Below are positions 4,954 to 29,093 of a stretch of DNA of 64,000 nucleotides, piece by piece (position 1 is the stretch's first letter; every line of letters begins with the position of its first letter). This DNA is from Stegostoma tigrinum. Taxonomy: Eukaryota. The stretch lies in NCBI RefSeq assembly GCF_030684315.1, contig NC_081368.1, positions 45,895,734 to 45,959,733 of the forward strand, given 5' to 3'. Under the pieces are notes generated by a model. It made no database searches. It was not told the origin of the DNA and worked only from the letters and a program-made list of their open reading frames with translations. The translations under genes and the position numbers were made by a program.

Positions 4954-5039
4954 TTAGTCAAGCTTGTTCTTCACTTGTTCAAAAATCTGCATGACTCTTA
5001 CTGTTGGGACGCATCCTTCTCTTAGAATGGTGATTCCTT
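4954..5039 (-). CDS. Last coding exon (GITILREGCVPTVRVMQIFEQVKNKLD*)
   Basis: Acceptor tttctttag; ILREG motif; TAA stop at 4956-4954. Confidence 0.85.
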
Positions 5040-8000
5040 CTAAAGAAAGTAAATATATTTTGTTAGAAACAGATTAATCATTGCCAAACCCACAACAATT
5101 ACCACTGAAGTGACCTTTAAGAAGCATTAATTGCAGACTTATTGAAAACTCCACACTACAACTAAGAACACTTTTAGAAACTGGGTCATGTGTAAAGATT
5201 GCTGCTGGGTTTAAGCTAGTTATTCGTAAAATCAGTTCACAATTGCATTTCTGTGATGGGCCTCAGAATTGTCAAGTTAAGTTAAATCTGGCTGACTGGC
5301 AGAAGTACTGACCTGTTCCTAGTAACAATACAATATTAATTGTGTCATATGCTAGGAGAGAAAATTGCTTAGCGCTAGATGTGACAACTATATGTGCAGC
5401 TGATCCAACTGTAATCCCATTTCATATTTCAACTACCATTGTTAACATATCAAAACTAAAGTGTGATTTAAATGAATTATACATACATATATAAGACTTA
5501 GTGTGTAAACTATTGTGGATGTTTTTGGATACAAGCAGTTTAATCAGCAGGCAAAGCAATTTATAACTAAAAATCTGTGATACCTTCATCAATCTTAGTA
5601 CAGTTGATGACAGTGGAAGCAACCAGTTCATTGGAGTCTCCGTCACATAAAACGGCATTAATTTTGTGCCCCAGGCGTCTATTGATAAAATGATAACATG
5701 AAACATTGAAAAATGCATTTATTGTGAGGTAAAACAACAAATAATTCCATGCCAATATTTGAATACGTACGAGATAACCATGTCATGATGGATGCTATCA
5801 GGCTCCCCACTTGGGTTGGCTGACGTAATCGCAAGTGGCCCAGTCATATTCACGAGATGTGCTGTCACAGTATGGTCAGGAACACGGATCATGATGCTGT
5901 CCTTGGTTCCAACATGGTCATATGCAGCACCAATGCCTTTAAAAAAGGATACCATCTGATTTTTCAGAATCTATTCTCATTTCTATTATTATTGATGAAC
6001 TGATAATAAACCAATTATTTGAAAAAGGATGAACAGATACTTCAAAGTGCTCTACTAATTGTGATACATACCTAGTTTCTTCAGCCATTCTCCTTTCTTC
6101 ACAATGCAGCTCATCCCTCCAGGGTAGACATGGTTCATAAACTCCCAGAGCAAGGGGCTGAATGGAGGATGCACTGCAGAAAGCTGATCGAGATTGGAGA
6201 TGCAGATACAAATAGGCTTCTCAGCAGGACGCTCCTGGAAAGCCATGGACACCAATTATATGCATTACAAGATTGATAAAGTGCACTTTGAGGAAAGATT
6301 ATATTATGGACTAAAAATAAAATGCTTTAAGAATCATGTCTAAATATAGAGTGTTTATGCCTCATTGCATTTTGCACACTTACCTTTATGTTGTAGATTC
6401 CTTCAATAGCTTTTGGGTGTTTACAGGAAGCTGCCAGAGCATACACGGTATCTGTTGGGATGCCACACACATGGCCAGAATCTAGAATTTTTGCAATAGT
6501 CCGTAGGCCACTAGTTTTCTGTGAAGAAGCAATGGAACAAGGCAAAGGGACTTGATCTTCCTTTTTGTTTGCTCCTACCTGTGATTTATGTATAAAAATA
6601 TAAATCGTGTCAGAAACATAATCCATTTTAATTGATACATTATAATGCAAATGACCCTGTTGTTCTTCGATATTGTTTGTATTTAAATAAAAGAGTAGAA
6701 CCTCCTTACATTATCCTTTGTAAATAAAATAAGAATGCAAGTTGATGGACTGTTAGAAAGTTATGTCAATTTGAAAGACATCTGAAATTTTCAATATGTT
6801 CTTGAACAGTTTATTAACTGCCAAGAAAGTGAACTACATAGCTATGATTCTTGACAGTTTACTCCTTAACTTGTGGATCTTTTCTGTGGTATTGCTCATA
6901 GAAGCTTGGATGCTAGGTTATTTCTTCCTGATGGGTATTTTACTAAACAAAAATACACAAGCTGAGGACAACATTGTTTAAATGTCTTTCATCTAAGGTA
7001 ATAATATGACTACTGTAGCTAGGTCAATGTAAGATTAATTGCTACTTTATGACAGGTTTGTAAAGTTGTAGATGCTTGGAAATGTTCAACTTCATGTAAG
7101 GATAACAAATGCATTAAATGGTGATTATAAAATGATTTTCATAGATTGCTGTCTAATATCAGAAGTAAAGTGGATTCTATTAAAACCTATAAAGACACAT
7201 TCATATAATAACATTATATTTGCATTCTTTCTTCATTAGGCCTCATATTACAAAAACATTATTTATTTTTCAAAATAAGTTTGTAATATTGGTCTAGCAA
7301 GTTTTACCACAATAAAGGAAGAGAGCAACTAAATGCTTACAAAATGCCTGCATGTTTAAGGTAATAAAAAATGCCTTCTACCCTCTTGCACATTCAGTCC
7401 GTATATCTTATTATAAATTCCCACTTCTATATTTATAATAGAAATGAGCTGTAATCATGCCTTCTGTGTATGACGCCCAAGAAGTTCTCAGTTCCTCAGC
7501 TCATTTTGCACAGCAACTCTTAAGTTCTAATCAGCATATCTGTCTTGTTTTGATGTAAACAAGAATGCAAAATAAAAGTTTAAAAGAATAGAATATATGA
7601 CTTTAAAGCAGGGATCGGATTACCTGCACTGAACCACTTATCTCCAGCCCTATAATTTCATTTGAGTGGAAGACCAATGCAGTAGATTGACAAATAATTT
7701 ACATTCAAAGTAAAAAGCCATCATATAGCAGTTACCTTCAAAAGGGAGTCACCCAGAGGAATGAGTTGTTTTCCAAACATGTGGTTGGCAAAAGAAGCCG
7801 TTTGTCCATAAACACAGACAAAACTGATTAAAGCCAGCATCACACCTGAAGGAATAACAATGAGAAAATCATAAGTGTTCATACGGCTATAAAATAAACA
7901 CTTTTAAAATTAAGATAACTTGAACAAATGTTTAACCTTCCAAAGGAAGAGGCAGGCGTTCCAGTGTGAATAGTAGAAAGCAGATGATTATCACTTCCAT

Positions 8001-11000
8001 AATGACTGTGACTATGAGAAGCACCACATTTACATAAAGAGCTGGGAAAGAGATCAAAAAAAACAAACTTATTCCTCATGGGCATCAAGCATTGAAGTAC
8101 ACTAACTGAAAAGGATTATGATTTAAAACACTCACCCAAGATAACCAGAAACATGTTGACAATAAGGAAAGCTATGGCTCCTGCAGTGAATCCACCATCA
8201 GAACTGGGATCAATGTTTAATAAATGACCTGCATAAAACACATATCTTTGAAACTCCTGAGATAACAAAGTGTAAGAGCTGGATGAACACAGCAGACCAA
8301 GCAGCATCGGAGGAGTAGGAAGGCTGACGTTTCGTGCCTAGATCATTCTCCAGCATCTGCAGTTCCTACTCTCTTTGAAACATCGTACAGGCAGAAGTGA
8401 ATATAAACATGTGATAGTATGGGAAAGTTGAGCAAGAAATGATCCATAGAAATTCCTTGTCTACTGAGAATTAAGAGTTAACTTGCTCTGAGAGATTCTT
8501 TGAAATTTTAATACATATTTAACTACTTCCTTCATTTCAACAGTTATTATTCTAAACTAAAATGGCCCAATGGCATGTTTTTAATGAGAAGAAATGTAAG
8601 CAATATTTTTAAGCATTCATAAAACAGTTCCAGGATAATGAAGGATTGGTCTTTCAAGATGGTTGTGTCGCGTAATTATATGAATTGTATCACGATACAA
8701 AATTACTTCACTTCTTCTACATGAAATCTGAACATAAAGTCAGAGATCCAGGGATTGGCACACAGGGAACAATGACATAATGTGAATATTTTGTCCATAC
8801 CTTTCTTCATGTGCTTCCTTATATAACACAGCTAAAATAAAAGATAACAAGATGTAGAGCTGAATGAACACAGGAGGCCAAGCAACATCAGAAGAGCAGG
8901 AAAGCTGATGTTTTGGGTGTAGACCCTTCTTCAGAAATTCAGATTTCTGAAGAAGGGTCCAGATCCGAAATGCCAGCCTTCCTGCTTCTCTGATGCTGCT
9001 TGACCTGCTGTGTTCATCCCGCTCTACACCTTGTTATCTCAGGTTCTCCAGCATCTGCAGTTCCTGCTATCTCCAAAAAAAACCTGCTCATCTATCTGAA
9101 CAATATACAGCAATATATTTTATGGTTGTGCGGCATTGTATTACTTCTGTGGTATGAAATGCTAGAAATGTCATGCAGAAATAAATAATTGTAAATTATG
9201 GGAAACAACTAATTCCTCTGGGTGACTCCCTTTTTAAGGTAACTGCTATATGTTGGCTTTTTACTTCAAGTGTTGATTATTTTACAATCTACTGCATTGG
9301 TCTTCCATTCAAATGAAATTATAGGGCTAGAGATAAATGGTTCAGTGCAGGTAATCAGATCCCTGCTTTAAAGTCACATATTCTGTTCTTTTAAACTTTT
9401 ATTTACAATTACACATGTAAATGTAAGCATCAAGTGAGGGGGAAGGTGTCATTCTCGTTGTCATTCCCTTGAACAGAAATATTTCAGTAAAAATGATCAT
9501 TTCCTACTAGGCAGATTGACAATATAATGGATGACTCTCCATGTTACAAAAAATAAACTGAAATTGTAAATATAAAACTTGAAAAAGAATGCAACTTTTA
9601 GAAAAACAATAAAAATGTATTTATTTGTTCATATTTCAAAATATACCTGCAAATCGAAGCCAGGTCCAAGTTGCCCAGACAGCTGCATAGCAGAAGGGTA
9701 ACACAGAGCCAAAGCGTCTTCCTCCACGAACTTGAATCCTGGACACATAGAGTTGGATCAGAGTTCCAGGGATCAGAACCCAAGGAATACTAAGATGAGC
9801 CTGGGCTTGGTCCATGTTTGCACTCTGGATGGCAGACAGGGCTGCAAGCCCATTGCAAATATAGAAGAGGGCATCTGGCAGCTGCACATTAGTAAAAACT
9901 GGGAGCTCATTAGCTTTGCTGATCCTCTGTTTTAGGGCAAATAGAACTCTCTGGAATGATTTGGAAGACACCATTTCGGTTCCAATAGGAATTAGTGCCT
10001 TTTCTGCTATAGAGTTGATCAGGCTGGCAAATGTTGCATAAAGGGACAGGGCCGTATACATAGAGCAAACTGCCCCAAAAAATCTGTAATATGATACAGT
10101 GTTAATCTGAGGAATAGTGGAGATAGTTAAAAGAACAAAAAACCCATTATGGATTATTTCAAGTTTGTTTCTGTTCAGAGACATTAGACATAAAATCAAA
10201 GCTGTGACCAAAAAAAACCAGTCTCCTGTCATTCTAGCTCTGCTGCTATCTAAATTGTTGGCATTTATGAGGACGGTTAAAATAAATTCCTCCCAGGACT
10301 TCACAAGCCAATACATACTATGGACACAATATTTAGTCGCAAAGTAGACATCATTACGTAAATATCCATAGTAGCTTGCATAAAGCTGTGCAATGGAATT
10401 GATGCTGACCCATACAGCTCCTACATAAAATGATTTAATGTACCTGAAACAGTAGAAAGCAAAGATAAAGGGAGAAATCACACTACACAAATTTCCAAGA
10501 GCCATTGGCTCTGCATATTTTGTGTTCTTCTTTTTCTCGTCATCATTAGCCTTAGAAGATGATTTATTGGCTGTTCCTAGAAGCAGCACATTGAATAATG
10601 CATTGCCAAACCCTGGAAGAATGTACCTCTGGGTGACTCCCTTTAAAAGCAGGGCAATGGCTCCATACAGCCCGAAGACAACAATCACTAGTTCAAATAT
10701 TCCTGATAGTATGAAAGCCCATTGGCTAAAGAGACCCACAGCCTCAAAAATGAGCGTAAGTGTTATGGCCCCAAAGACAAAAGGCATGATGTAATTAGTC
10801 GTAGCTGAACAGAATGATAGAGTAAATGCAACACTGATGTAAGCTACTAGCCCTGCCACAGCTGATTCACTAATAGGAGGCAAAGACACACTTGAACTAT
10901 CATTTGCAACACTGGTGTTTTTTAGATCCAGAATGTTTGAGGTGACATTAAGAGGGGAGTTTGCTCCCAGAATAATCCGAGTTGCCCCAAAGCTGCTCCA

Positions 11001-11975
11001 CAAAGCTGAAAATGTTATAAAGGCTGTGCCACCCAGATGGTCGTACTTTCTGAAGGACATTAGTCCGGCAACAAGTTGTGTCACTCCACCAATCAAAATA
11101 AGGTGAACACCTAGAAAAAAATGGAATTTTTAGTAGCACTGGCTTCTTTGATTAATTACTTAGGATATCAAATAGAGAGGCTTTAAACTTATTTCACCAT
11201 TGACCACCATAAACTTCAAAAATGTCGAAAAACAATATCTTCATTAGTGTCTTGAGCTAATGAGACCTTTTAAAAATGATCATTCAAAATCTTAGAACTG
11301 GTTAATACTGCAGTTTAGGTTTGTTTGTAAATACTTTCTTTTAACATCCCTGTGTTTCAGTATAACTTGGATTCTGACTGACTTCAAAGGGCAGCAGTGT
11401 GCCAACTCTTACCGGACGTGTCAAAGTGCTGGGATTTGAAAGTACATAGAGCTTTTCAAGTTAAGAAATGAATGCAGGAGTTTATACTTTATAAGTATGA
11501 TATGTAAAAATTAGTTGTGTCAAAGCAGGCCGAAGAAACATTGGAACAAGATTGAAGCTACTTTCTCCAGAAGTCAACAATGGGCTAAGAATTGTACATG
11601 TTTTTGCCCTATTTACAAAATGTAATATTTCGTGTCAGTTATGAAGTCTTACCATCATAAACCATTTTCCTGAGTAATAGTTGTTACAAAACATCTCAGA
11701 ATTTTTTGCATAATTCATGTTTAGTGGCTTTTGTGTTCCATGCAAAATCAGATGATATTTCATGTTGTGTAAGGTGATTACTAATCACAGCTGCAATAAG
11801 CTGCTATTTGTAACTAACCTGCCAAGATGTTTTCAGTTCCATTGGCCAAAATATTTGTATTGACTTGGGCAAAATTTTGAAGAGCTACAAGGAAGGCACT
11901 GATCACATTGGCCAAAAGCCCCAGGACTCCTGGCTCACTGTAAAATACAGCAGGAAAGCCTTCTGCACTAGACAT
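4954..11975 (-). CDS. Multi-exon gene: 3x GPR1/FUN34/YaaH (SatP/AceTr)-like carboxylate channel fused to a C-terminal YrdC/TsaC-like domain, ~877 aa
   Basis: Coding exons 11975-11819, 11110-9647, 8228-8136, 8041-7937, 7845-7736, 6578-6384, 6234-6072, 5936-5771, 5678-5584, 5039-4954. All introns are GT-AG with compatible phases (1,1,1,1,0,0,1,2,1); total 2634 nt with no internal stop. SatP-like motifs: YSEPGVLGL, GGVTQLVAGLMSFRKYDHLGGTAFITFSALW, LIPLG. YrdC motifs: PTDTVYAL, KERP..KP, IRVPDH, TSANPSG, STV, ILREG. Confidence 0.85.
5584..5678 (-). CDS. YrdC-like domain exon 4 (RLGHKINAVLCDGDSNELVASTVINC)
   Basis: Acceptor ttttatcaatag, donor G|GTATCA, phase 2-1; D.G...ST motif. Confidence 0.85.
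5771..5936 (-). CDS. YrdC-like domain exon 3 (IMIRVPDH...AITSANPSG)
   Basis: Acceptor ccttttttaaag, donor TC|GTACGT; S-x-N motif. Confidence 0.9.
6072..6234 (-). CDS. YrdC-like domain exon 2 (ERPAEKPICIC...YPGGMSCIV)
   Basis: Acceptor gctttccag, donor G|GTATGT; completes the K-x-R motif across the junction. Confidence 0.9.
6384..6578 (-). CDS. YrdC-like domain exon 1 (GIPTDTVYALAAS...IYNIK)
   Basis: Acceptor aatcacag, donor AAG|GTAAGT, phase 0-0; PT(D/E)TVY motif. Confidence 0.9.
7736..7845 (-). CDS. Exon, end of third AceTr-like unit (VMLALISFVCVYGQTASFANHMFGKQLIPLGDSLLK)
   Basis: Acceptor ttccttcag, donor AAG|GTAACT, phase 1-0; resembles the SatP C-terminal G..LPIG motif. Confidence 0.85.
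7937..8041 (-). CDS. Exon, third AceTr-like unit (ALYVNVVLLIVTVIMEVIIICFLLFTLERLPLPLE)
   Basis: Acceptor ctctttcccag, donor G|GTTAAA, 105 nt, phase 1-1; hydrophobic helix. Confidence 0.85.
8136..8228 (-). CDS. Exon, third AceTr-like unit (HLLNIDPSSDGGFTAGAIAFLIVNMFLVIL)
   Basis: Acceptor ttttatgcag, donor G|GTGAGT, 93 nt, phase 1-1. Confidence 0.85.
8255..8371. mobile_element. Intronic PLE terminal fragment
   Basis: PLE terminus; direct repeat TCTTTGAAAC (8245-8254, 8372-8381). Confidence 0.7.
8841..9075. mobile_element. Head-to-head palindromic pair of PLE termini (CTGAAGA variant)
   Basis: Inverted termini centred near 8938. Confidence 0.75.
9201..9404 (+). repeat. Inverted local duplicate of ~7570-7775 (exon end, donor site and intron)
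   Basis: Aligns by eye to the reverse complement of 7570-7775 with scattered substitutions. Confidence 0.9.
9647..11110 (-). CDS. Large 1464-nt exon encoding most of the three SatP/AceTr-like membrane units
   Basis: Matches ORF 9636..11096; acceptor ttttttctag, donor GCAG|GTATAT; many hydrophobic helices. Confidence 0.92.
11819..11975 (-). CDS. First coding exon of SatP-YrdC gene (MSSAEGFPAVFYSEPGVLGLLANVISAF...ENILA)
   Basis: Acceptor ttcattctag ends at 11987, ATG at 11975, donor G|GTTAGT. Contains an AceTr N-terminal (N/E)PxxLGL-like motif. Absent from the ORF track. Confidence 0.85.
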
Positions 11976-12497
11976 TTTCTTTGAGCCTAGAATGAATAAA
12001 TAAACGAATGTAGGAATTAAACAGCATCCATTTCATGAATCTTAAATGAATTAATTGATGATTAAAACACAACACCCACCATGAAATTGAATCTGCATTA
12101 ATGACAAACTATATGATTCACAAAAATATCACTTGCTTAGACAAATATAGCAGGCATAATAGATATGAAAAGACAGCATGACCTAATATGTAATAATATC
12201 CAAACTTTGCACAATATCATATAAATATAGACATGGTAATGTATATGTAAACAAATATGAGCTAGCAGTTTTGCCTCCTCAGACAAAATGGGAGTATAGC
12301 ACTGAGCTGACAAATTTCCCATTTCTGAGTCATTTTTCCCACAAATGGCAAGTCACCAATTAAGGGCAGTTGAACACCTTCGAAGGCCTATTACCAGAGA
12401 CTGGAGAAAATCTTTCAGTCAACCTCCAGGTTCGCTGAGGCACTGGGGAAAAAGCCAGATACTTGGAAATTGCCTCCAGTCAACATGCTCAAGAGTC

Positions 12498-13170
12498 AGT
12501 GATAATGGGAACTGCAGATGCCGGAGAATCCAAGATAACAAAGCGTAGAGCTGGATGAACACAGCAGGCCAAGTAGCATCTCAGGAGCACAAAAGCTGAT
12601 GTTTCGGGCCTAGACTCTTCATCAGAGAGGGGGATGGGGAGAGAGTTCGGGAATAAATAGGGAGAGAGGGGGAGGCAGACCGAAGATGAAGAGAAAAGAA
12701 GATAGGTAGAGAGGAGAGTATAGGTGAGAGGTAGGGAGGGGATAGGTCAGTCCAGGGAAGACGAACAGGTCAAGGAGGTGGGATGAGGTGGTAGGTAGGA
12801 AATGGAGGTGCAGCTTGAGGTGGGAGGAAGGGATGGGTGAGAGGAAGAACAGGTTAGGGAAGCGGAGACAAGCTGGGCTGGTTTTGGGATGCAGTGGGTG
12901 GAGGGGACGAGCTGGGCTGGTTTTGTGATGCAGTGCGGGGAGGGGAAGAACTGGGCTGGTTTTGGGATGCAGTGGGGGAAGGGGAGATTTTGAAGCTGGT
13001 GAAGTCCACATTGATACCATTGGGCTGCAGGGTTCCCAAGTGGAATATGAGTTGCTGTTCTTGCAACCTTCGGGTGGCATCATTGTGGCACTGCAGGAGG
13101 CCCATGATGAACATGTCGTCTGAGGAATGGTAGGGGGAGTTAAAATGGTTCGTGACTGGGAGGTGCAGTT
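12498..13170 (-). mobile_element. 5'-truncated Penelope-like element
   Basis: GIY-YIG C-terminus (RRLQEQQLIFHLGTLQPNGIN), 33-bp Pro-rich tandem units, terminus with hammerhead motif. Confidence 0.9.
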
Positions 13171-13910
13171 CTCCAGTCAGGCTTTGATGCCCTTCTCATC
13201 TGCCTGCATGGATTGTAAAGCAATTGAATCGAAAAACATTGAACTGAATTGCAATTTATGTATTTGGAAAAATTGTTATCATCTGCTGCATTCGACCACT
13301 ATGATAATAGTATAGTTCTTATAATTTTGCACTTTGTACTTCTTCTCCTTGCTTGAGCATCTCATCATTTTCCATCCTCTCATGCCCCTCTTAAAATCCT
13401 TGCTTTCTATCACCTCGCAAAGTCCATCTTGGTTCTCCCTGTGATCATCTCCTTTCTCATCTCCCTGAGACTTGGTGATGTCTATCTCCATCTCTGTGCC
13501 TTCACATCTCTTCTCATGGTAATTATGCACATTCTACATTTTTCCATCCATATCTATTCACAGTCAAGCCAATATGGGTCAGTAGAAAAGAGATGAAAAG
13601 TGAATGGCACTTGTTATGATTTGAGACAGGGGCAGCAGTGTTTTGATTATAGAGGGTAAAATGTGGAAACCATCTATGAAGGCAAAAGAATAATTAAACC
13701 TAGAGGTAACAAAACATGAATGAAGGATTCAGCATAATATAAACTAAGATAAGGTAAAGTCACAGGATGTTTCTCAGATGAAAATATGAGGTTTTATCAA
13801 TGGCATTAATGAGACGTCAGAAGCTGAACTCTGGTTCAAAAGTGACCTTAAGGTTGGGAATAGGCTGGCTTAATCTCAGAGCGTTATCAAGGGCAGGGTT
13901 GAAGTTGGAT

Positions 13911-14455: not shown

Positions 14456-16062
14456 GTTCGTATGTCTTTGCAGGTGCCTGGGAGCAGCATATAGATAAGC
14501 AATAGGAGGGCCAAAGAATAGATCCTTGTGGGGGGCTGTGCATGATCAGGAGGAGAAACCACTGTAAGCGATTAATTTGGCTATAATTGGATAAATAAGA
14601 ATTGAAACATATTTCAATAGTCGCAACCAGCTGGACGAAGGTAAGTTTCATTGGAGGTGTATGGTGTGGATAACCATGTCAAAAGGCTGCAGACTGGTCA
14701 AGAACGGTGAGGAGAGAAAGTTTTCCTGTATGACGCTCACATAGGATGTCATTTGTGAATAAAACCCTTCAAAAACCCTATGATTAGGCTATTGACCACC
14801 TTGGCTAACATATGCTTCCACAGTTTGGCGTTCACATGAGGAGTCTCAGATGTCTATGTAAAAACGCTACAAACTAAAATTGTTGTTAAAGGAATATTCT
14901 GAATATTTCTGAACAAGGGTCCCATGCGAAACGTCAACTTTCCTCCTCCTCTGATGTGTTCCTCTAGCTCCGCACTGTGTTATCTCTGACTCCAGCATCG
15001 ACAGTTCTTGATACTTCTGATACTTACAATACTTGAAGTAATTAACTCATTCAACTCTACATTTGGTTATGATAATCAGCCAATCGAGGCTGCATTACAC
15101 AAACCGGTCGTTTTCAAAATTTCAAAAGAGCTTCGGTAACTAGAACTTTCAGAAAGTGAATTTAACAATATTAGAAAACGTACATGAGACTTGATGGCTT
15201 AGCTTAAAGAATGGGACGCCATCTCTTGGTAATGCATATATAACATCGGCGTAAAGTTCGGTAAAATTTCCTGTATGAGATCGCTGGAGAATCGCAACGT
15301 TACTCCGTTAATAGTGCAATCGTATTATTACGCTTTTTCTAGGAACAGCAGGTTATAATAGAAAACCACTGCTATTGCCAAATGCGAACAATGCAGAAAA
15401 TAACCACAGTGGCTGGAATTCTATGGAGAGACGAGGGAGGATTTGGCTGATGGCAAGTTTTTCCAGACAAATTCAGACAACAATTTTTAGGACACAAACT
15501 TGAGGAACCCCGAGAGATCTGCGAACCGAACTGGGTATAGAATCGTTAATTCAGTTATCGACTGTAACAGCCTCTCGGCGATGCGCCCCACTTGCTTTCT
15601 GAACGGTTAGAAGCGTTAGTATGAGATACTTAAGCTTAACCTGAAATTGTTTAAAGCATTATTCGTTAATCCTTACCGAATCTGATATCTCGATATTATA
15701 CAAATAGACATTTCTAGGCACAATAGACAAATTGAGACATAATTATGAACACATTTTAAACCACAGTCGAGTTGACACTAGAAAATTAATATCAGACCTC
15801 TCAAGGATTGTTATCGTTGTGAGTCTTCCACATCTTTGAGCTATATTTCAATTTATCGAAATCATTGATTTTTCTACAAATGCATATAAAAGATATATCT
15901 GATATCATTCAATACATAAGTAACGTAAAACCATCTCTATATGTACTGAATTATATCAGATTCGTCCTTTAAAATCATTTGGCTTTAGATGTTTAAATCA
16001 CTGAATTCCTTAGCTATGAACACATAATATCATGTAAAAGAATGAATGTTAATGTTGCTTAC

Positions 16063-16250
16063 ATGCAGTGTCCTCGGGGCACCTTCTTTGCTGTTATTTT
16101 AAACTATCGTGTCTCTCGGTTTTATAGGAGTTGGCATTGAAAGAGGAAATAGTAAGCATTATATTTCATAAATGTGACCAGCCCCCGAGGACTTTTCCCA
16201 AGATTTTTTTTTCCACTTGACGATCTGTCACAGCTAACTTCCTCGTTCGT
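16063..16250 (-). promoter_or_regulatory. Putative promoter and short non-coding first exon of the SatP-YrdC gene
   Basis: TATAAAA at 16126-16120; donor GTAAGC starting 16062; kB-like GGGAAAAGTCC 16199-16189; PU.1/ETS GAGGAAGTT 16244-16236; local CpG enrichment ~15000-16500. The first coding exon has an acceptor, so an upstream exon is needed, but its position is inferred. Confidence 0.45.
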
Positions 16251-16757
16251 CATAGTGGGGGCACCAACGTTAATGCATAGCAGCCAGCATCAAAGAGATC
16301 AGGAAATTGGAACAAGGAAAACATAAGTTCCGCGCCATTCCTTGAATGATCATTTATCAACTGTTTTCATATCTTATTCGAGGATAGACTTTACAATAAT
16401 TGGAAAGTCGTTTTTTAAAAGAATGTGTCGGGTCTGAAGCGGAGGCTTTTCATTTGAAAGAGACGCTGAATGAATACTATTGCAAGGCTATAGAGAATGT
16501 TTCTTCTGCTTTAATTGATCAACGAGAAATGAAGATTTACATCATATTTTTATTATGGAAAACTTCAGGTGACTGCTAAAATGGACCAAGCGAATTCCAC
16601 TATTTACCTTATTTAGACCAACTTTTTCAAACGACAATGATCAAAGAGTCAAACAGATATCAGAAATGCTTAGAAACATGCACCCTAGATGAGGGTGTTT
16701 TACGGCCCTCGGTTACAATACAGTGAAAGACATGGAAAAGAAACAATGTTAGAATAT

Positions 16758-18711
16758 TATCAGAGATAATGGGAACTGCAGATGCTGGAGATTCCAAGAT
16801 AATAAAATGTGAGGCTGGATGAACACAGCAGGCCAAGCAGCATCTCAGGAGCACAAAAGCTGACGTTTCGGGCCTAGACCCTTCATCAGAGAGGGGGATG
16901 GGGGGAGGGAACTGGAATAAATAGGGAGAGAGGGGGAGGCGGACCGAAGATGGAGAGTAAAGAAGATAGGTGGAGAGGGTGTAGGTGGGGAGGTAGGGAG
17001 GGGATAGGTCAGTCCAGGGAAGACGGACAGGTCAAGGAGGTGGGATGAGGTTAGTAGGTAGCTGGGGGTGCGGCTTGGGGTGGGAGGAAGGGATGGGTGA
17101 GAGGAAGAACCGGTTAGGGAGGCAGAGACAGGTTGGACTGGTTTTGGGATGCAGTGGGTGGGGGGGAAGAGCTGGGCTGGTTGTGTGGTGCAGTGGGGGG
17201 AGGGGATGAACTGGGCTGGTTTAGGGATGCAGTGGGGGAAGGGGAGATTTTGAAACTGGTGAAGTCCACATTGATACCATATGGCTGCAGGGTTCCCAGG
17301 CGGAATATGAGTTGCTGTTCCTGCAACCTTCGGGTGGCATCATTGTGGCAGTGCAGGAGGCCCATGATGGACATGTCATCAAGAGAATGGGAGGGGGAGT
17401 GGAAATGGTTTGCGACTGGGAGGTGCAGTTGTTTGTTGCGAACTGAGCGGAGGTGTTCTGCAAAGCGGTCCCCAAGCCTCCGCTTGGTTTCCCCAATGTA
17501 GAGAAAGCCGCACCGGCACATCCCAGATGTCCAAGTTCTTTAAGGACCGCAACTTTCCCCCCACGGTGATTGAGAACGCCCTTGACCGCGTCTCCCGCAT
17601 TTCCCGCGACACATCCCTCACACCCCGCCCCCGCCACAACCGCCCCAAGAGGATCCCCCTCGTTCTCACACACCACCCTACCAACCTCCGGATACAACGC
17701 ATTATCCTCCGACACTTCCGCCATTTACAATCCGACCCCACCACCCAAGACATTTTTCCATCCCCACCCCTGTCTGCTTTCCGGAGAGACCACTCTCTCC
17801 GTGACTCCCTTGTTCGCTCCACACTGCCCTCCAACCCCACCACACCCGGCACCTTCCCCTGCAACCGCAGGAAATGCTACACTTGTCCCCACACCTCCTC
17901 CCTCACCCCCATCCCAGGCCCCAAGATGACATTCCACATTAAGCAGAGGTTCACCTGCACATCTGCCAATGTGGTATACTGCATCCACTGTACCCGGTGC
18001 GGCTTTCTCTACATTGGGGAAACCAAGCGGAGGCTTGGGGACCGCTTTGCAGAACACCTCCGCTCAGTTCGCAACAAACAACTGCACCTCCCAGTCGCAA
18101 ACCATTTCCACTCCCCCTCCCATTCTCTTGATGACATGTCCATCATGGGCCTCCTGCACTGCCACAATGATGCCACCCGAAGGTTGCAGGAACAGCAACT
18201 CATATTCTGCCTGGGAACCCTGCAGCCATATGGTATCAATGTGGACTTCACCAGTTTCAAAATCTCCCCTTCCCCCACTGCATCCCTAAACCAGCCCAGT
18301 TCATCCCCTCCCCCCACTGCACCACACAACCAGCCCAGCTCTTCCCCCCCACCCACTGCATCCCAAAACCAGTCCAACCTGTCTCTGCCTCCCTAACCGG
18401 TTCTTCCTCTCACCCATCCCTTCCTCCCACCCCAAGCCGCACCCCCAGCTACCTACTAACCTCATCCCACCTCCTTGACCTGTCCGTCTTCCCTGGACTG
18501 ACCTATCCCCTCCCTACCTCCCCACCTACACCCTCTCCACCTATCTTCTTTACTCTCCATCTTCGGTCCGCCTCCCCCTCTCTCCCTATTTATTCCAGTT
18601 CCCTCCCCCCATCCCCCTCTCTGATGAAGGGTCTAGGCCCGAAACGTCAGCTTTTGTGCTCCTGAGATGCTGCTTGGCCTGCTGTGTTCATCCAGCCTCA
18701 CATTTTATTAT
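16758..18711 (+). mobile_element. Young Penelope-like element with ~720-bp inverted arms
   Basis: ORF 17410..18396 with GIY-YIG endonuclease (VVYCIHC..C..LYIGET.RRL..RF.EH); 16797-17517 is the reverse complement of ~17994-18711; 14-bp TSD CAATGTTAGAATAT (16744-16757, 18712-18725). Confidence 0.95.
18619..18650 (+). ncRNA. Minimal hammerhead ribozyme of the PLE terminus
   Basis: CT-CTGATGA-A-GGGT-CTAG-GCCC-GAAAC-GTC-AG; loopless palindromic stem III (ACGT), as in dimeric PLE hammerheads. Recurs in many copies in the window. Confidence 0.7.
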
Positions 18712-19329
18712 CAATGTTAGAATATGACGGATTTAAAGGCTTTCGAGGAACAAGATAGAAAAGTTAAACAAAATGAAGGCCGATTGCCGGAGCAAATATT
18801 CCCAAGAAGCTTCAGAAATTCTGCTCTGCTGTTCCATGATGCTGACAGGAACACCCAAGAGGGGCCATTATATAAATTGTCCGATTCTGCCTAACACAAA
18901 CTTCTTTTTCAAGTTGTTCACGGCCTCACATCAAATGTTAAGCATTGTATCCAAAGCGCGACTGATTTAATCTGATCTGGCGATCGTCTCCACTATATTC
19001 TCAAACCTCCTAACTTTGTGCAGCTCACTTCTGCCTCCTCAACACCTACAACGAGATTATCAGATTATACCCATTGTTTCAACTGTTCTTGTTTCAGAAC
19101 TGTATTTCTCTTATCTCTTCCAATGAACTGCCTCCACAGGCATACAGGACTCATCCGTTGCATTCCAAAACCTTAACGATTTCCAAGTTCCGACTTCTTC
19201 TCACAATAGATGTCCAAAGATTCGACACGTCTATTCGTTATCTGCGTGGCTGAGAGCTCCACATCTTCCATGAATGGAGGCTCAATCATTTTCCTACACT
19301 GGAGGAATTTGTTCTCACATTGAACAATT

Positions 19330-21719: not shown

Positions 21720-22390
21720 AATCAGAAAAAAAAGCCAACATAGGAGAAAGCAATTCTTTTGCCAAGTCTGTTTTGGATCTTTCACTGAATGGTGCAGTTA
21801 GCCCCATTCCTACTGTCTTTCACCTCCAAGAAATTTCCCAATTCCATTTTGAAGACAATCATTGAATTTACATATACAACCCTACTAAGCTCTATCTTTG
21901 AAATTCAAACTACTGGCTATGTAAGAACTTCTCTTTTAATCACACATTACCTAGTTCTTTTGCCAAATATTTTAAACCAGCATCTAATAGTTATCAAGCC
22001 TTCAAACACTGGAATCAATTTCTCTTCAACTTCTCCATCTGAATTCTTCCTGATTCCAAACATTTCTATCAGATGTCCTTTTCATCTTATCTGATGTGAT
22101 TAATCCAACTCTGCAGTTTTTCCATTAACCCATAACCACTCATCACTGGAACTATTTCTAGTAGTTTTCTCTACTATCTTCAAAACCTTTCTTTCTTCCA
22201 AAATTGTGAGCCCAGAACTGAACAGAATCTCCCAACCATGCCCAATCTAGCATTTTCTACAGGTTCCACATCATTTCTTGTTTTTTTTCTCTAAGCCACT
22301 CTTTATCAAGCTCAGGGTCCTTGGTTCTTAAATAATAGCACTGTTAACTAATTTTGCCACCATTAAGCATTGTGTACAAACACTCACATC
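21720..22390 (-). mobile_element. Decayed CR1-type LINE 3' region
   Basis: Weak similarity to the other CR1 3' ends; boundaries approximate. Confidence 0.45.
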
Positions 22391-23599
22391 TTTTACAGTT
22401 CTTGTGCTCCTTCAGAATAATTTTTTGTCAACTTCCAGGCATCAAAAGCAATATATGCTAGTGTATTGAATAAAAATGGAGAAGACATGTCTAGAGAATC
22501 TCATTATAGTATATGCATTAAACTTGCAACTTGTCACGGTGTGTGATGTATGTCATCTGCCAACATAATAATCATGCAGAAAAGCAAGCGTCAAACTACT
22601 GGGGAAGCCTATTAAACATTGTGGCATGCTTGAACTCCACCAACCTCTCCCTTCTACCAGAATTAAGTCAGGACAGAAAATCCCAAAGTTCGGCTTTTTA
22701 CCGTGCCACCAGTTGAGACCCTCAAATAGGCACATAAATAGTCCAGTTGGTAGGCCTGTTGATACGTGGTGTGCATAAAAGGTTGACCTGGTCAGACTGC
22801 TTGTCGGCTCCTTGTTCAAAAGGCACATGCCTGATCAAAGGATGCAACATCAGAAAGTGGGTCCACTGAGGCCATCCTTCCTGCCACTGAACTACCTACA
22901 CCTGGTGATCTATACCATTTGCCAGGCCTCTTCTTAAGGATGCTCAGTGCACCTGAGGCATGTGGGGAAGCTGAACTTGAAGTGGACAAAATGTATCTAT
23001 TTGGTGTTGCCCTTCTCCATATCTATAAAGGACAACTATCCCTTTTACCACAAATGTTTGCACGAGTGCCCTTGAGACAAACATTAGTCACAGTATTTGA
23101 TATATGGTCTCTGCCAGAAACTAACAAAGAGACAATAGTTGCTTCCTATAGCTTTCTTGACCAAGAAAATAAAAATATGAGATCAAGCAAACAAGGACAG
23201 TTTTTTTTGCTACTGCTAAGAAAAGATGTGATGTCGTGATAAATGATTGGCCAGGACTGGATTTATGGCTGGAAAGGGTTGTTGGGACAGCAAGGTTTGG
23301 TGAGGGGTGTTAAGGTGAGGTAGTTGGTACAATGAATTCCTTCTCAGGATTCACTCATCCAATCCCTTTCCTTATCAGACCATTGCTGCCACCATCTGAA
23401 CCTGGATGGTATTACCTTTAGGACGTCACCAAACAGTGATCAGGACTCTGAGTAAGCACAAAAGAAGCCTTTTTTCTGTTTCTCAGTGACACGATTATTT
23501 TCTCTGAAAGACTTTGGTTTTAGTTCAATCAAACTAGCAAACTGAGTTATGTTAATGTTAAGCAAAGGAACTTCTTATTGACATGTTGCATGGAGGAAC

Positions 23600-24280
23600 A
23601 AGGAAATACAGAAAAATAGAAACAGGACAAGTATCTTTGGCACATCAAGCCTATTCCACTATTCAGTTAGGTTACCATAACCTAAATTAAATCAATAATT
23701 TACCTTAATGAAATTTTTTGCACAATCTTCAAATCAAATTATTTCATTAGTGTTGACAAATCTATTCATTTCTGTCTTGAACATACTCAATGATTTCTGT
23801 TGTCCTCCTGGGTAGAAAATTCCAGAGGTACATCACCTTCTGAATGAAGAAACTTCCCATCTCAGTTTAAATAACTTCAAACGTTTCCGATTCCTTCTCA
23901 ATCTTTGAAATTGTAAGGAGTATGATCTCAATTTCCTTAATTTCTCCTTATAAATCAATCCTGCCATCCCATTGATTATTCTGGTCAGTCTCTGTCATAC
24001 TCCCTAAATGGTAATACATCCTTTCTTACATAAGGAGACCGAACCACACAAAGATTCTAGATGCAGTCTCACCAAGCCACTGTACATTCACAGCTAGGTA
24101 TCTTTACTCATGTACTTAAATGCCCTTATAATGAATGCCTATATATCAGTCACACTCCTCATTGTTTGCTGCACCGGCATGTGTGCTACTAGTGATTAAA
24201 GACAGACTGTTCCATTTGTACACCAGCTCTTCCCAACCTCTCACCATTTAAGGAGTATCCAATGTATCTGTTTGTGGTAG
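23600..24280 (-). mobile_element. Decayed CR1-type LINE 3' region
   Basis: LNGERL-like and LVRLHLE-like segments on the minus strand. Confidence 0.55.
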
Positions 24281-25179
24281 ATTTGGATTTTTGGATGATC
24301 AAGGAGAGAATGATGTTTGCTGATGGGCCATTTAGGGAATAAAAAGACCACTGTGGTTGAACCATCGTTTGGATCTGCCAGGTGACAGTGAACGTCAATC
24401 AAAAAATGGCCATGCTAGAACAAGTTGTAGCTTTGGGTCACAGCAGTGTTGGTTGTTTTGAATGCCAGCATAGGGTGTATGAAGGGAGATAATTGCTGAT
24501 GCTGGAGAGACTTGCAAACATGTAGCCAAAGCGACCTGCTTTGGTCTTAGATGAGCCCAAAGGTTTCTGCTGTTTCTGGCCCCATAAAATGTAAACAGAA
24601 GATTAATCAGTGGCACCCTCTTTGACAAAGAAGATAACCAACAAGAGGTGGTCCACACATTGCTCAAAGAAAGAATTAGTGGGGATCTTCGGGCTTGACA
24701 GAGCAATGCACCTAAATGAGGAAGTGGACTGGTCAATCAGTGGGAAAACCTGAAAGGCTGGACACACTGATAATAGATGATTACCCAATATTTCCAAAGC
24801 TGTGCAGCCCCCACCCCGTCAAAAAAAACTCAGTAATTTTCCAGTGAAGGGTTATAAGCAGAAACTGTGCTTTAATACATTTGATACGTATAAGTAATAT
24901 AAAGCATTGCATCGAATTTAGATAAATTCAAAACAAAAGATTGTGAAACACCAGCGCAGTATATACACCACCTATTTACATCAACGGAAAAAAAGAAGAG
25001 GATGATGGTGGTCATGTCCCTGTCACTATCCTATCTGCCCTGGAGGTGGGCAGGTACATGAAAAAAAAGAGTAAAATAGACCTTTTACAGAACAGTGATT
25101 TTATCTCTTCCTTGTGTGTAACTGGGGTTTAGGGTCAATGGAAATGCTAACATAGCCTCTTCCGATGAAATGACGACAT

Positions 25180-25345
25180 CATGGAAAGTCCAATCCTTAG
25201 TTATGCAAATCTTTGATAATAAAATTTGACAAGGAGGCGGTGGGGTTTGGGGGTGGAGGGGTATGCTGACGAGTGACGTGCGCTTTCGGCTTACTCGCAA
25301 CACCAAAATGCTATATAAATGCCCAAGTCAAGAGAGCAGAATTAG
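25180..25345 (+). promoter_or_regulatory. ACOD1-like promoter
   Basis: TATATAAA 25312-25319; kB-like GGAAAGTCC 25183-25191; overlapping C/EBP-like TTATGCAA and octamer ATGCAAAT 25201-25210; CRE/HRE-like TGACGTG 25274-25280; CpG-enriched through ~26850. Confidence 0.65.
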
Positions 25346-25414
25346 ACTTAATTCTCCTAGTGAAATTTATCCCATTGTGAAAGCAAGAGCAGCTACAAAG
25401 AGAAAGGCGACAGG

Positions 25415-25606
25415 ATGTTCTCCAAACTTCTGGTAGCTATTGCGTTAATGTTGAAACAAAAAAATCTTTGATCTATGATTGCAAGCTTTTGTTATTTTAA
25501 ATATATTATTTATTTGCTAACATTGATTCATTCTGCTTCCGTCTTTAGAAATTTCAGCTCAGCTTAACAACTGGAAAACGCCTGCACCATAAAATTTCTC
25601 GCGAAG
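25415..25606 (+). CDS. ACOD1: ACOD1-like exons 1-2 (25415-25432, 25549-25606): MFSKLL/KFQLSLTTGKRLHHKISRE
   Basis: ATG ~100 nt after TATA; donors GTAGCT (weak) and GTAAAT; acceptor gtctttag; phases join exon 3. Basic, nearly acid-free peptide. Confidence 0.65.
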
Positions 25607-28600
25607 GTAAATATACTTGGCTTCTGTCTGAAAAAGAACTGAAATGGTTATTCGTTGTCTGTCCGTGTGTACCTCCATTCCGCAGCCTGGTGTGCAGTAC
25701 CACAAGCTGCGCTAAAGAGGAGAGGCGCACTGCATCGTAGTGTACCTGAGTTGTTTGCTTCAACTCAAAAGTCTAAGAAACTTGAGATAGAGTCCATTCA
25801 AATATACAATAATAGCACTAACGGTTCAACCAAACGTATTCATTGCAGCGCGGCACAAGTTGCTGCTCGTTATTGGGTCAATTTCAACACAGATCTCGGA
25901 CTGTGTCATGAAAGCGAAGATCCGAAAGACTTTGTTTCCTTTCAACTTCAGCACTTGAGAGCGCTCGTGGGAGCGGGGATATTTCTCATTGCAAAGTCAG
26001 CTTTGTTTTCTGACAGTTCCATAGAACGCGTTCCGGTGGGAACTACAACGGTTTGACTCGGACGGTTCAGTGCTTTAAACAAATGAAATCGTCATATGTG
26101 TAATTATGTAACTATTTTTTTTACCCCTCTTGTTAGCTTTCGAGGCGCCGGATTTGAAAAAGACGGTGACGAGCAGTTTTGGCTCATTTATCTCGGGAGT
26201 TGAAGTTGATCATCTCTCGGAGACGGTTTTACAGAGGAGCAAACGCATGATCCTAGACAACATTGGAGTCGGAATCCTGGGCAGCACCAGCCCGGTGTTT
26301 GATATTTGCCTAAATTACTGCCAGGTAACTTACACACAACCTCACAGTCACGGGCGCGCTAGGCGCCGCTCCACATCCTATTCCGATTCCATCATTAATA
26401 CCTGGGCCAGATTCCGTCAAGCAGCGAAAGTGCCGCTTGAAACTAAACTAGTAGCTACCTCAATGCTGGCCACTGCAAGCTGCTTCCCAATGTTTGCAGG
26501 TTAGCTCTAAGCGGACTGCGAGCTGTGACAGCAATGCGACCCACGTTACGACAGCCTCCCTTTTATTTCAAGTGAATTTGGTGGGATGCTCAGGCACAGA
26601 GACTGACAGCTCCAATGTCCACATCCGACGATTACTCATCAGGAGACACACAACCCGCTTTCTGTACTGATGGGAGTCACTGTTTGAGCTGCTTTCCCTT
26701 ACAGTGCGGTCCTTTATTCTCTAACCCGCTCCCCTTGCTTCCTTCCAACAGCAAATGTACGCTCAAGACCCAGTCAGCTCAGTCTACGGACGCAAAGGAT
26801 TAAGACTTTCGCCGACTCTGGCCGCTTTCGCCAATGGAGTCGCGGTAAGATGTTTGCACCTAATGACTTTCTGGGTTTCACAAACTAGTCAATAAACAGA
26901 AAGAATGTTCATGATGAAACCTGAGCCTGCCACTTATTGGTGTTTCCATAGCTTTAATTTATGTTGTCTCATCTTCACCCCTTAGGCACATTCAATGGAT
27001 TTTGATGATACTTGGCACCCTGCCACCCACCCGTCTGGAGCTGTACTTCCCGCCCTCCTTGCTGCTGCCCAGATGTTACCTACAAACTCCAAACCCACTG
27101 GACTCGACTTCCTCTTGGCTTTTAATGTGGGCATTGAAGTTCAGGGCAGGTTAATGCACTTCTCGCAAGAGGCGAACAACATCCCCAAGAGGTGAGACAC
27201 TGGTACAAAACTCCAAACATTAATGCGGAAGCCAGATTTTGCAGCGGGCGTTGAACTCATGGCGCTTTGCTGTTGGTCAGCCTTAAACTTGCCAGCATTC
27301 ATTCACGGGGTTCTGCATTAGAGGAAATTATCATTAGACAGAAAGGTACCACCTACAGGGGTGTGAATAGTGCAAGAAATTTTACATTACAGTTTCTTCA
27401 TCAACCAAATTTAAAACTTCCACCTGGAATAAGAAAAGTATAAACCAGGAAGTGTAGATGAAAACATTTAATGGTGTGCAAAATTATTTACAGAGCATAA
27501 AAATAAAAATCGTGAACGTCAGGTCTGATTAAGAGGGAAATAAGCATTTCATAAAAGTTTTTGAAAAGTAATTAATATTTGAAGAAATTAGATTCTTCAC
27601 TACAAAAGTTTTTTTTTAGGGCCAGAGAATTTATTTCATAGTAATTAAGGTTTATTCCATTGACTAAAATCATTTAATCAATAAAATAATTTAAATAGAC
27701 ATGACCTAACTTTTTCTCATGTGTTTAATGGGTAACGAGCGGTCATTGCTACACTTCCAGAACATCATGTGCTTGAATGTGAGACTCTGAAAAATATACT
27801 GAGCAACAAAATTCATGGGTATACATAGCAATTTGGATCAGTTCAGTGTCTCACAAAGGAATGGCTCGAAGTTGCTATCCGATTTGCTTATTAATAGTAA
27901 CGTTGCTATTTATTACACAAATTCAGGTAATATAGTTGCATGTAACATTTTAGAAAAAAACAGTACTTTTTTGCAATTAATTGAAAGCATTATGTAAATA
28001 ACTACTCAGTGACAGTCAAGCCATTTGAAAGCAAAGGATCTGATTAATAAAAGAGCAATTATGGATCTGCTAATTGCAATAACACTGTTAATTCTGTTTA
28101 ACTGAAGTGTAATTGTGTAAAATAATGAATAAACAAAAGGGTCAGGTGCTTGAATTTTTTTTTTAATTTGACAGATTTCACCCTCCCAGTGTGGTTGGGA
28201 CAATGGGCAGTGCTGCAGCCATAGCCAAATTCCTTTCACTTAATGACAATCAATGTGTTCATGCCCTAGCTATTGCAGCTTCACTCTCAGGGGCACCAAT
28301 GGCCAATGCAGCCACTCAGGCAAAACCCATCCATATTGGCAATGCCACACGGCTGGGCTTTGAGGCAGCTCTCCTTGCTTCTAAAGGAATGGAAGGAAAT
28401 GTGAAAATTCTCGACAAGACACTTGGCTGCTTTGGATTTTCTGCTTTTTATGGTGACTACGAACCTCAGAAAATTGCTCCACTTGAACAGACACGATTTC
28501 TACTTGAGGACCAAGATATTGCATTTAAGCGCTTCCCTGCTCATCTAGGTATGCACTGGATAGTAGATGCTGCTGTCTCAGTTAGGCAGTTGGCAACTGC

Positions 28601-29093
28601 TAATGATGGTGCTTTTTCACCCTCTATGATTGACAGAATAATTCTGCATGTCCCTGTTTCCCGTTACATCAACAGGCCATTCCCAGAAACAGAACATGAG
28701 GCTCGCCATTCCTTCCAGTTTAATGCCTGCTCTGCATTGTTGGATGGTGAAGTGAACATTGAATCATTCAGTGAAACTAAACTGCAACGAGATAGTCTCA
28801 ATGATTTACTTAAAAAAGTGGAGCTTCAACATCCTGAAGATAATGTGGCCAGTTTTGAGAAGATGTATGGAGAAGTAGTTCTCCTCCTGAGGAATAGAGA
28901 TGTGCTCAGGGGAAGATGTGACACCTTCTATGGACACTGGAGAAACCCACTGTCTAGAGAATCACTACTCGACAAATTCAGAAGTAATGCTTCCTATGTA
29001 TTGGAGCAAAACAAAATAGAAGCTATTATCAACACAGTTGAGAACCTTGAAGAAGTGAGGAATAGTTCCACGTTAGCCTCTTATTTGCAGTGA
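25415..29093 (+). CDS. ACOD1: Cis-aconitate decarboxylase (ACOD1/IRG1-like, probably an irg1l-type paralogue), ~493 aa, MmgE/PrpD family
   Basis: Exons 25415-25432, 25549-25606, 26137-26324, 26752-26844, 26986-27191, 28175-29093; GT-AG, phases 0,1,0,0,2; 1482 nt. Motifs: KRMILDNIGVG, AHSMDFDDTWHPATHPSGAVLP, RFHPP, ATQAKPIHIGNA, FKRFPAHLG, RYINRPFP, EARHSFQF, FYGHWRNPL. Confidence 0.95.
26137..26324 (+). CDS. ACOD1: ACOD1-like exon 3
   Basis: TVTSSFGSFI...RSKRMILDNIGVGILGS; acceptor cttgttag, donor CAG|GTAACT. Confidence 0.92.
26752..26844 (+). CDS. ACOD1: ACOD1-like exon 4
   Basis: QMYAQDPVSSVYGRKGLRLSPTLAAFANGVA; acceptor ccttccaacag, donor GCG|GTAAGA. Confidence 0.92.
26986..27191 (+). 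CDS. ACOD1: ACOD1-like exon 5 (catalytic His region)
   Basis: AHSMDFDDTWHPATHPSG...NNIPKR; acceptor ccccttag, donor AG|GTGAGA. Confidence 0.95.
28175..29093 (+). CDS. ACOD1: ACOD1-like last exon
   Basis: ORF 28191..29093 extended to acceptor aatttgacag; FHPPSVVG to TGA stop. Confidence 0.95.

Follow-up and report, generated by a model that had tools for sequence, protein, structure and literature searches.

IRG1L and two SatP–YrdC fusion genes in a candidate itaconate-related cluster of the shark Stegostoma tigrinum

Genes at the locus

We analyzed a 64,000-nt stretch of Stegostoma tigrinum contig NC_081368.1 (hereafter, the window), with the flanking analysis covering 664 kb of contiguous sequence from the same genome. 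The window carries two divergent genes: on the minus strand, a gene predicted to join SatP-like membrane repeats to a YrdC domain (fusion-1; 4954..11975), and on the plus strand, a gene for the cis-aconitate decarboxylase IRG1L (25415..29093). Together with three genes outside the window, they make up a five-gene cluster whose members, we think, probably share one pathway. An earlier note on this DNA had described two intact, divergent genes in the 64 kb, and both are indeed present within the limits it gave, with unbroken predicted frames. Two points go beyond that note: the membrane part of the fusion is a triple repeat, and the cluster runs on past the window.

Fusion-1 is the ortholog of si:ch211-153b23.3. 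Its 10 coding exons, all with an open frame, lie on the minus strand at 11975-11819, 11110-9647, 8228-8136, 8041-7937, and 7845-7736 (exons 1-5) and at 6578-6384, 6234-6072, 5936-5771, 5678-5584, and 5036-4954 (exons 6-10). Every intron is GT-AG, and the predicted spliced frame encodes 876 aa without a stop. The product is 92.6% identical across 877 columns to a full-length Chiloscyllium shark protein (P0140) and 60-69% identical to seven proteins from coelacanth, frog, lizard, bird, and teleosts. Its large exon is identical to the NCBI protein si:ch211-153b23.3 of Stegostoma tigrinum. As a side observation, the end of exon 7845-7736 recurs in intron 2, at 9197-9247, as a short near-copy in the opposite orientation.

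The second gene has 6 coding exons on the plus strand (25415-25432, 25549-25606, 26137-26324, 26752-26844, 26986-27191, and 28175-29093) and encodes 493 aa. ACOD1 decarboxylates cis-aconitate to itaconate. The shark product matches PF03972 and PF19305, with the MmgE/PrpD matches above cut-offs, and it carries D124, T128, H134, H190, K238, and K306, the His/Lys substrate set plus an Asp and a Thr. We take these residues to correspond to human D93, T97, H103, H159, K207, and K272. The leader is basic in composition (6 K/R in 30 aa), and the gene is the sole match in the shark's own 3.2-Gb genome. Judged from its basic leader, its synteny with VOC, YrdC, and GAT genes, and the range of the family in sharks, the plus-strand gene is IRG1L rather than IRG1. 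The earlier label of an ACOD1-like gene holds for the enzyme class, MmgE/PrpD, but not for the identity, IRG1/ACOD1. Sharks are reported to carry IRG1L only, without IRG1; IRG1L was lost in therians and retained in platypus; and zebrafish IRG1L produces itaconate and is located in the mitochondrial matrix (bioRxiv 10.1101/2022.06.17.496652). By analogy, the shark enzyme is likely to produce itaconate in that compartment as well.

The fusion protein

The membrane part of fusion-1 is predicted to contain three six-helix SatP-like repeats (aa ~8-218, 248-424, and 458-632; 7736..11975, minus strand). An AF2 model of the Chiloscyllium ortholog P0140, made with a 95-sequence alignment (mean pLDDT 75), has 18 membrane-length helices in three blocks followed by an alpha/beta domain. 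Repeat 1, the one repeat for which a structural match was obtained, aligns with SatP 5ys8 over 172 residues (VIA Z 20.8, root-mean-square deviation [rmsd] 2.8). Hidden Markov models of the repeats, from a five-sequence set, match one another and E. coli SatP (E 3e-8, 1e-7, and 4e-3). PF01184 scores weakly on the large exon, at 18.7 bits against a cut-off of 25, and the repeats stay below both the Pfam and NCBIfam cut-offs. The earlier description of a SatP-like channel fused to YrdC is thus borne out at the level of predicted folds, both of which lie in one 876-aa frame.

The pore-lining motifs have diverged. The NPAPLGL signature of AceTr/SatP channels reads EPGVLGL, EPMALG, and PDALFY in repeats 1-3, and the SatP N8 position is E. 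At the SatP F17 position, repeats 1, 2, and 3 have N, D, and N (11/11, 10/11, and 11/11 sampled rows), and the hydrophobic FLY constriction is absent, Y72 being represented by F/Y, H, and Y, and L131 by I, L, and V. SatP Q50 and W76 are kept in every sampled row of the three repeats (11 rows per repeat). In yeast Ato1, the substitution F98A, equivalent to SatP F17, lets the protein carry succinate (PMC8379382). The loop at aa 100-133, after helix 3, has N-glycosylation sequons in 93 of 95 orthologs; this conserved loop suggests that the protein enters the secretory pathway and resides in the plasma membrane or a vesicle membrane. From SatP topology, the YrdC domain would then face the cytosol. 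Analogous to SatP/YaaH (5ZUG, 5YS3) and yeast Ato1/Ady2, the fusion has the six-helix fold (Z about 21) and Q50 plus W76. Unlike them, it has three fused and diverged repeats, the N8-to-E and F17-to-N/D replacements, an outer loop predicted to be glycosylated, and an enzyme domain.

The C-terminal YrdC/TsaC-type domain (aa ~655-876; 4954..6578, minus strand) matches PF01300 above cut-off and aligns with Sua5 6f89 over 190 residues (VIA Z 16.0, rmsd 3.0). The ortholog P0140 scores 130.9 bits with TIGR00057, for which the cut-off is 123.2. As defined for Pa-Sua5 in PMC6004061, the ATP-binding tetrad is KxR/SxN, and threonine is bound by T35, H67, R121, S181, and R195. The tetrad, K708-x-R710 and S801-x-N803, is present in 95 of 95 paralog-1 orthologs. 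Four of the five threonine ligands are kept (T685, R780, S839, and R855); at the fifth, the H67 position, 81 of 95 orthologs have Cys, and so does the shark's own YRDC exon. The canonical shark YRDC is located on another contig. The YrdC domain of paralog 2 departs from the tetrad: 96 of 106 sequences read K-x-Q, and Trp occupies the His67 position, in the amino-acid pocket, in all 106. In a midpoint-rooted tree of 86 rows, which did not include canonical eukaryotic YRDC, the fused domains group together (100/100), separate from prokaryotic TsaC/Sua5, and there are mollusc members in both paralogs.

The YrdC domains of the two paralogs are predicted to bind each other. Specifically, the pair scored 0.84, the best control reached 0.40, contact agreement was 100%, and partner pLDDT was at least 84. 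The pairing mark is reached by 51/78 solved versus 2/108 mismatched microbial pairs and by 39/65 novel eukaryotic versus 2/126 unrelated pairs. Memory of a similar structure may contribute to such a high score.

Three side observations concern relatives of these domains. The gastropod proteins P0121-P0123 consist of tandem YrdC domains only, of the fusion clade, with two copies in Littorina and Batillaria. A Haliotis tandem-YrdC model has approximately six near-identical copies and may be an assembly or annotation artifact. Finally, P0391 (frog), P0412, and P0467 form a long-branch, fast-evolving group within the paralog-2 clade.

A five-gene cluster and its distribution

The cluster spans 235 kb. 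Fusion-2 stands head-to-head with a GATD3-like gene, GLOD5 follows, and then fusion-1 stands head-to-head with IRG1L. The GLOD5-type VOC gene is ~58-64 kb left of the window (segments L007 and L008), the GATD3/ElbB-like gene ~181-186 kb left (L038:4100-9100), and fusion-2, the ortholog of si:ch211-153b23.4, ~197-207 kb left (L036:3300-10000 and L037:1-3300). Fusion-2 is likewise a triple SatP–YrdC protein, ~30% identical to fusion-1 and with the same folds; its repeat 1 is without most of the pore motifs. The GATD3-like gene was found by tblastn with E. coli ElbB and was not recovered in a PF01965 search, and neither three of the GATD3-like exon references nor the 52-aa exon of GLOD5 had a Pfam match. 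A second GATD3 copy sits on contig C14. No MCF or MFS transporter was noticed among the open reading frames (ORFs) of the 664 kb, for which no profile search was made. The starts of the GATD3-like gene and fusion-2 are CpG-rich and ~11 kb apart, which mirrors the fusion-1/IRG1L pair.

Linkage of this kind has been described. According to the study of IRG1 evolution, pIRG1 and IRG1L, but not IRG1, share synteny with VOC, YrdC, 2-oxoglutarate (2OG) oxygenase, and GAT domains, and for YrdC, VOC, and GAT genes the reported linkage runs from mollusc (oyster) to vertebrates; the authors saw no obvious functional clustering and did not, in the accessible text, note SatP domains (bioRxiv 10.1101/2022.06.17.496652). 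The shark locus resembles that IRG1L/paleo-IRG1 locus in having IRG1L only, a putative matrix leader, and VOC, YrdC, and GAT neighbors, and it differs in that the published 2OG oxygenase neighbor was not found on the shark contig. The synteny proposed as a check in the earlier note, YrdC next to ACOD1/irg1l in other lineages, exists in print for YrdC, VOC, and GAT, and the shark genome itself shows it.

Similarly, the fusion family itself has been described, as the Ato (AceTr)-Sua5/YciO/YrdC family (Ghasemi et al., iScience 2026, PMC13316224), with ~900 aa, three AceTr repeats, and a C-terminal YrdC. That study recognizes two clades and offers a two-protomer ring hypothesis; the window gene belongs to the clade of si:ch211-153b23.3. 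It calls the family absent from mammals, whereas platypus and echidna have the fusion. We found no literature that joins AceTr–YrdC fusions to IRG1L or itaconate in a search that lay outside subscription journals. It appears that the parts are known in print and that the link between the fusion family and IRG1L is new. For the fusion family, the cluster context, the induction, the active versus altered YrdC domains, and the pore substitutions are what we add here.

Fusions are named in oyster, scallop, snail, argonaut, amphioxus, all sampled non-mammalian vertebrate classes, platypus, and echidna. No therian name occurs among the matches listed (120 each of 194, 437, and 389), and the mammals found to have the fusion are monotremes; IRG1L is published with the same mammalian range. 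Among 21 species paired by eye, at chromosome level only, both paralogs lie on an equal-sized contig in 17. Farther afield, P0359, P0363, P0366, and P0370 are SatP–YrdC fusions of 900-1140 aa from MMETSP and metagenomes that form their own branch. Such sequences suggest that the fusion exists in microbial eukaryotes. A metagenome scan for neighbors of these microbial-eukaryote-type fusions found nothing, and the ESM Atlas returned only the same fusion family.

Induction during infection

The zebrafish gene b23.5 is, we presume, the GATD3-like gene of the cluster. The earlier note had proposed co-induction under infection as a check, and published zebrafish data agree with it. Specifically, in Shigella-infected zebrafish (PMC6980646; 23,516 genes), b23.3 has a log2 fold change of 6.04 (4th row) and irg1l of 5.81 (6th row), followed by b23.4 at 4.05 and b23.5 at 3.08, all four with adjusted P (padj) < 1e-12. 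By comparison, yrdc (0.27), gatd3a (-0.36), and exoc1 (0.12) are flat in that dataset. In addition, one module from a weighted gene co-expression network analysis has irg1l, b23.3, and b23.5 as hubs (PMC11140123).

Bacterial and fungal itaconate systems

A link between GLOD5-type VOC proteins and itaconate chemistry comes from microbes. In Pseudomonas, the VOC protein PA0880, which shares 59.7% identity with Rdo1 of the Ustilago itaconate cluster, is a lactonase that converts 2-hydroxyparaconate to itatartarate (PMC9875883, PMC12290011). Exon by exon, shark GLOD5 has 53-69% identity to the VOC gene of an itaconate-type operon in Stutzerimonas, where that gene is placed between acyl-CoA dehydrogenase and MmgE/PrpD genes in an operon that also has dehydratase, CoA-transferase, CitE-like lyase, and DctP genes. 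Among 80 bacterial loci with a GLOD5-type VOC gene, 8 have it directly beside MmgE/PrpD (7 in Stutzerimonas/Pseudomonas and 1 in Desulfobacterales). In the Desulfobacterales genome (L126:4896-6732), the VOC gene directly precedes the MmgE/PrpD gene. The Pseudomonas PA0878-0886 operon, whose layout the Stutzerimonas operon shares, likewise has MmgE/PrpD adjoining the GLOD5-type VOC gene. Unlike the shark cluster, however, it is degradative, uses a TRAP-type transporter, and is without SatP or YrdC, and its MmgE protein, a methylsuccinate isomerase, shares just 26-29% identity with IRG1L. A bacterial operon ancestor joining SatP/YrdC to an IRG1-like gene was looked for in these 80 VOC loci and in the loci of the 15 best bacterial IRG1L matches, and it was not found.

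The fungal itaconate clusters, cadA-mttA-mfsA of Aspergillus terreus and tad1-itp1-cyp3-rdo1 of Ustilago, also combine an itaconate-forming enzyme with a transporter-like gene and a small gene of the VOC type. They differ from the shark cluster in using a mitochondrial tricarboxylate carrier and an exporter of the MFS family for transport instead of AceTr proteins (PMC11626831), and the accessible text lists neither YrdC nor GATD3 as a member; the shark cluster would be an animal counterpart in which a channel-enzyme replaces those carriers. Conversely, a VOC gene is present in the shark cluster, but no P450 or other oxygenase was found there. The analogy with Aspergillus drawn in the earlier note is accordingly a loose one: a transporter does stand beside the itaconate gene, but the carriers are MCF and MFS proteins.

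Promoters between the two genes

The putative fusion-1 promoter, with the first intron, lies at 15001..16500 on the minus strand; it is CpG-rich and has a TATAAAA box at 16126-16120. GAS-like palindromes occur at 16338 and 15337, and a short non-coding first exon may lie near 16095-16060. The putative IRG1L promoter (25180..25414, plus strand) has TATATAAAT at 25312, a C/EBP-like TTATGCAA at 25201, a CRE-like TGACGT at 25274, and a one-mismatch kB site at 25183, single motifs for which an excess over chance is not demonstrated. The TATA boxes at 16126 (minus) and 25312 (plus) are 9,186 bp apart, in agreement with the promoter spacing of ~9 kb and the TATA boxes reported earlier. So is the CpG enrichment: the observed/expected ratio of 1.10 at 15001-16000 is the top of 662 1-kb windows in the 664 kb (median 0.23), and it is 0.72-0.82 at 25001-27000.

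The kB-like promoter motifs claimed earlier fared otherwise. Matches to GGGRNWYYCC with one mismatch number 95, against 128.9 expected from shuffles, which is below chance; none falls within 16000-16700, and there is no perfect match near either promoter. Because they are rarer than chance, we reject kB motifs as evidence. A shared bidirectional promoter is likewise rejected, given that the TATA boxes are 9.2 kb apart and that a ~2-kb Penelope-like (GIY-YIG) repeat lies between them (16745..18736; PF01541 E 0.0011, under cut-off; multi-copy in the region).

Proposed mechanism

The hypothesis is that the cluster encodes an inducible itaconate-handling module with a channel-enzyme. Following infection, IRG1L would make itaconate in mitochondria, and itaconate would exit by ordinary carriers. 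The three repeats of each of two paralogous protomers could rebuild the SatP hexamer as a six-barrel ring. In the plasma membrane or a vesicle membrane, this ring would pass itaconate or a related small dicarboxylate, with loss of the gate Phe giving a polar, widened gate that might admit a C4-C5 dicarboxylate. On the cytosolic side, a YrdC dimer with one subunit bearing the full ATP tetrad and one altered would turn ATP, bicarbonate, and an amino acid into a carbamoyl-adenylate, which may gate the channel or derivatize a metabolite rather than serve tRNA modification. GLOD5, judged by homology and gene context, could open an itaconate-derived lactone. Given that zebrafish IRG1L is in the matrix and that the fusion is directed toward the secretory pathway, direct use of IRG1L's CO2 by YrdC is doubtful. 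We hold the chain as a whole tentatively, at a little short of an even chance. That itaconate or a derivative is the cargo is possible and, on balance, somewhat doubtful.

We further speculate, while considering it rather improbable, that in molluscs, amphioxus, and all non-therian vertebrates this is a true metabolic cluster older than the protostome–deuterostome split. In this scenario, itaconate would be converted to antimicrobial products (a hydroxyparaconate/itatartarate-type lactone or a YrdC-carbamoylated derivative) that are secreted via the heterodimeric six-barrel channel-enzyme, and therians would have lost the module and kept IRG1.

Itaconate is a central immunometabolite whose exit from cells and conversion products are debated points, and metabolic gene clusters are rare in animals. 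The proposal names two uncharacterized, strongly infection-induced zebrafish genes as candidate channel-enzymes of an itaconate pathway, provides the vertebrate Ato–YrdC family with physiological context, and suggests a substrate class for GLOD5. If true, it would bear on mucosal defense in fish, poultry, and shellfish.

A range of observations weighs against an itaconate module. Regarding the protein, the NCBI model of fusion-1 ends at 543 aa by read-through of the exon-2 donor; the exons beyond that donor are intact, however, and full-length forms occur in other sharks, the splicing of the window gene being predicted. The NPAPLGL and FLY gate motifs are lost, and repeat 2 places an Asp and a His in the pore, so these changes could equally mean another solute. 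The predicted YrdC interface is pseudo-symmetric, and heterodimer and homodimer are therefore not told apart. The AceTr mutagenesis paper (PMC8379382) does not mention itaconate, and neither itaconate, IRG1, ACOD1, synteny, nor platypus appears in the main text of PMC13316224. Regarding the genome, a low-sensitivity, exon-level search with PF03171, PF05721, and PF14226 gave no 2OG oxygenase match on the contig. The two paralogs lie on unequal contigs in 4 of the 21 species (Amia, Arapaima, Astyanax, and Scleropages), exceptions some of which may be due to different assemblies. Regarding expression, zebrafish glod5 (0.65, padj 0.50) and b23.7 (1.50, padj 0.20) are not significantly induced by Shigella (PMC6980646). 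Among 13 genes taken from a table in PMC8877790, unlinked sult5a1 correlates with irg1l at r 0.91 across 18 conditions, against 0.86-0.90, with b23.3 at 0.88; because unlinked genes track irg1l as closely, the co-expression is not specific to the cluster. Regarding other organisms, 72 of the 80 bacterial VOC loci are without an MmgE neighbor, none has SatP nearby, and 1 has YrdC. The neighborhoods of the 15 best bacterial matches to IRG1L, drawn from 401 genomes of one phylum and all 24-31% identical, contain no SatP, YrdC, ElbB, or VOC. Finally, related SatP–YrdC fusions in an MMETSP transcript and in metagenome proteins mean that the fusion may predate its link to IRG1L.

Alternative explanations

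One alternative, unlikely in our judgment, is that the fusion is a substrate-channelling synthetase, in which bicarbonate, an amine, or a small acid would reach YrdC through the channel and be used to form a carbamoyl-adenylate for a defense metabolite made with other cluster enzymes, itaconate being a precursor or co-product, not the cargo. The retention of threonine-, bicarbonate-, and ATP-binding positions in paralog 1 speaks for such an enzyme, and conservation is higher in the YrdC domains (0.85-0.87) than in the membrane repeats (0.69-0.81). The gastropod proteins that consist solely of tandem YrdC domains from this clade are also consistent with it, as are the YrdC-like folds that work outside tRNA in HypF, TobZ, and VtdB. 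Opposed to this are the release of IRG1L's CO2 in another compartment and the oxygenase not found on the contig. In addition, the ORFs and exon candidates of the 664 kb showed no evident Kae1/TsaD-like acceptor, for which no profile search was made.

The next alternative, also unlikely, is that the genes are co-regulated neighbors without a common pathway: they would share inflammation enhancers, the fusion would serve to control pH or fuel by carrying ammonia, acetate, or other short-chain acids, and YrdC would be a regulatory domain. The equal co-variation of unlinked genes with irg1l fits this account, and so do the lack of glod5 induction in zebrafish, the fusions in microbial-eukaryote-type records, the separate promoters with a retroelement between them, and the judgment of the synteny authors that there is no obvious functional clustering. 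It does not readily explain why the reported linkage extends from oyster to vertebrates while the IRG1 paralog has other neighbors, why the fusion and IRG1L are both found only in monotremes among mammals, why induction is seen for the cluster copies but not for housekeeping yrdc and gatd3a, or why a same-family VOC occurs in bacterial and fungal itaconate clusters.

Finally, a membrane-anchored second YRDC that raises threonylcarbamoyladenosine (t6A) tRNA modification in infection is very improbable: although the ortholog exceeds the TIGR00057 cut-off and its residue set matches that of the shark's own YRDC exon, a canonical YRDC is present on another contig, the fused domains are a clade of their own (100/100, in the tree without canonical eukaryotic YRDC), paralog 2 is without the catalytic Arg, and the three channel domains and the linkage would be left unexplained.

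Other features of the region

Repeats aside, the search found no additional gene in the window. An EXOC1/Sec3-like gene comes next, spanning about 66-152 kb on the minus strand; it ends at ~66.1 kb, ~2 kb past the window, and a third gene within the window is accordingly rejected. Beyond fusion-2, at L035:52-5920 (~214-220 kb left of the window), there are broken long terminal repeat (LTR)-like ORFs with protease, RNase H, and integrase pieces recognized by eye. Penelope-like GIY-YIG fragments, very abundant in the region, occur at 12478-13170, 16745-18736, and 44339-46091, and CR1/LINE-like fragments lie near 2200-3100 and 38600-39200.

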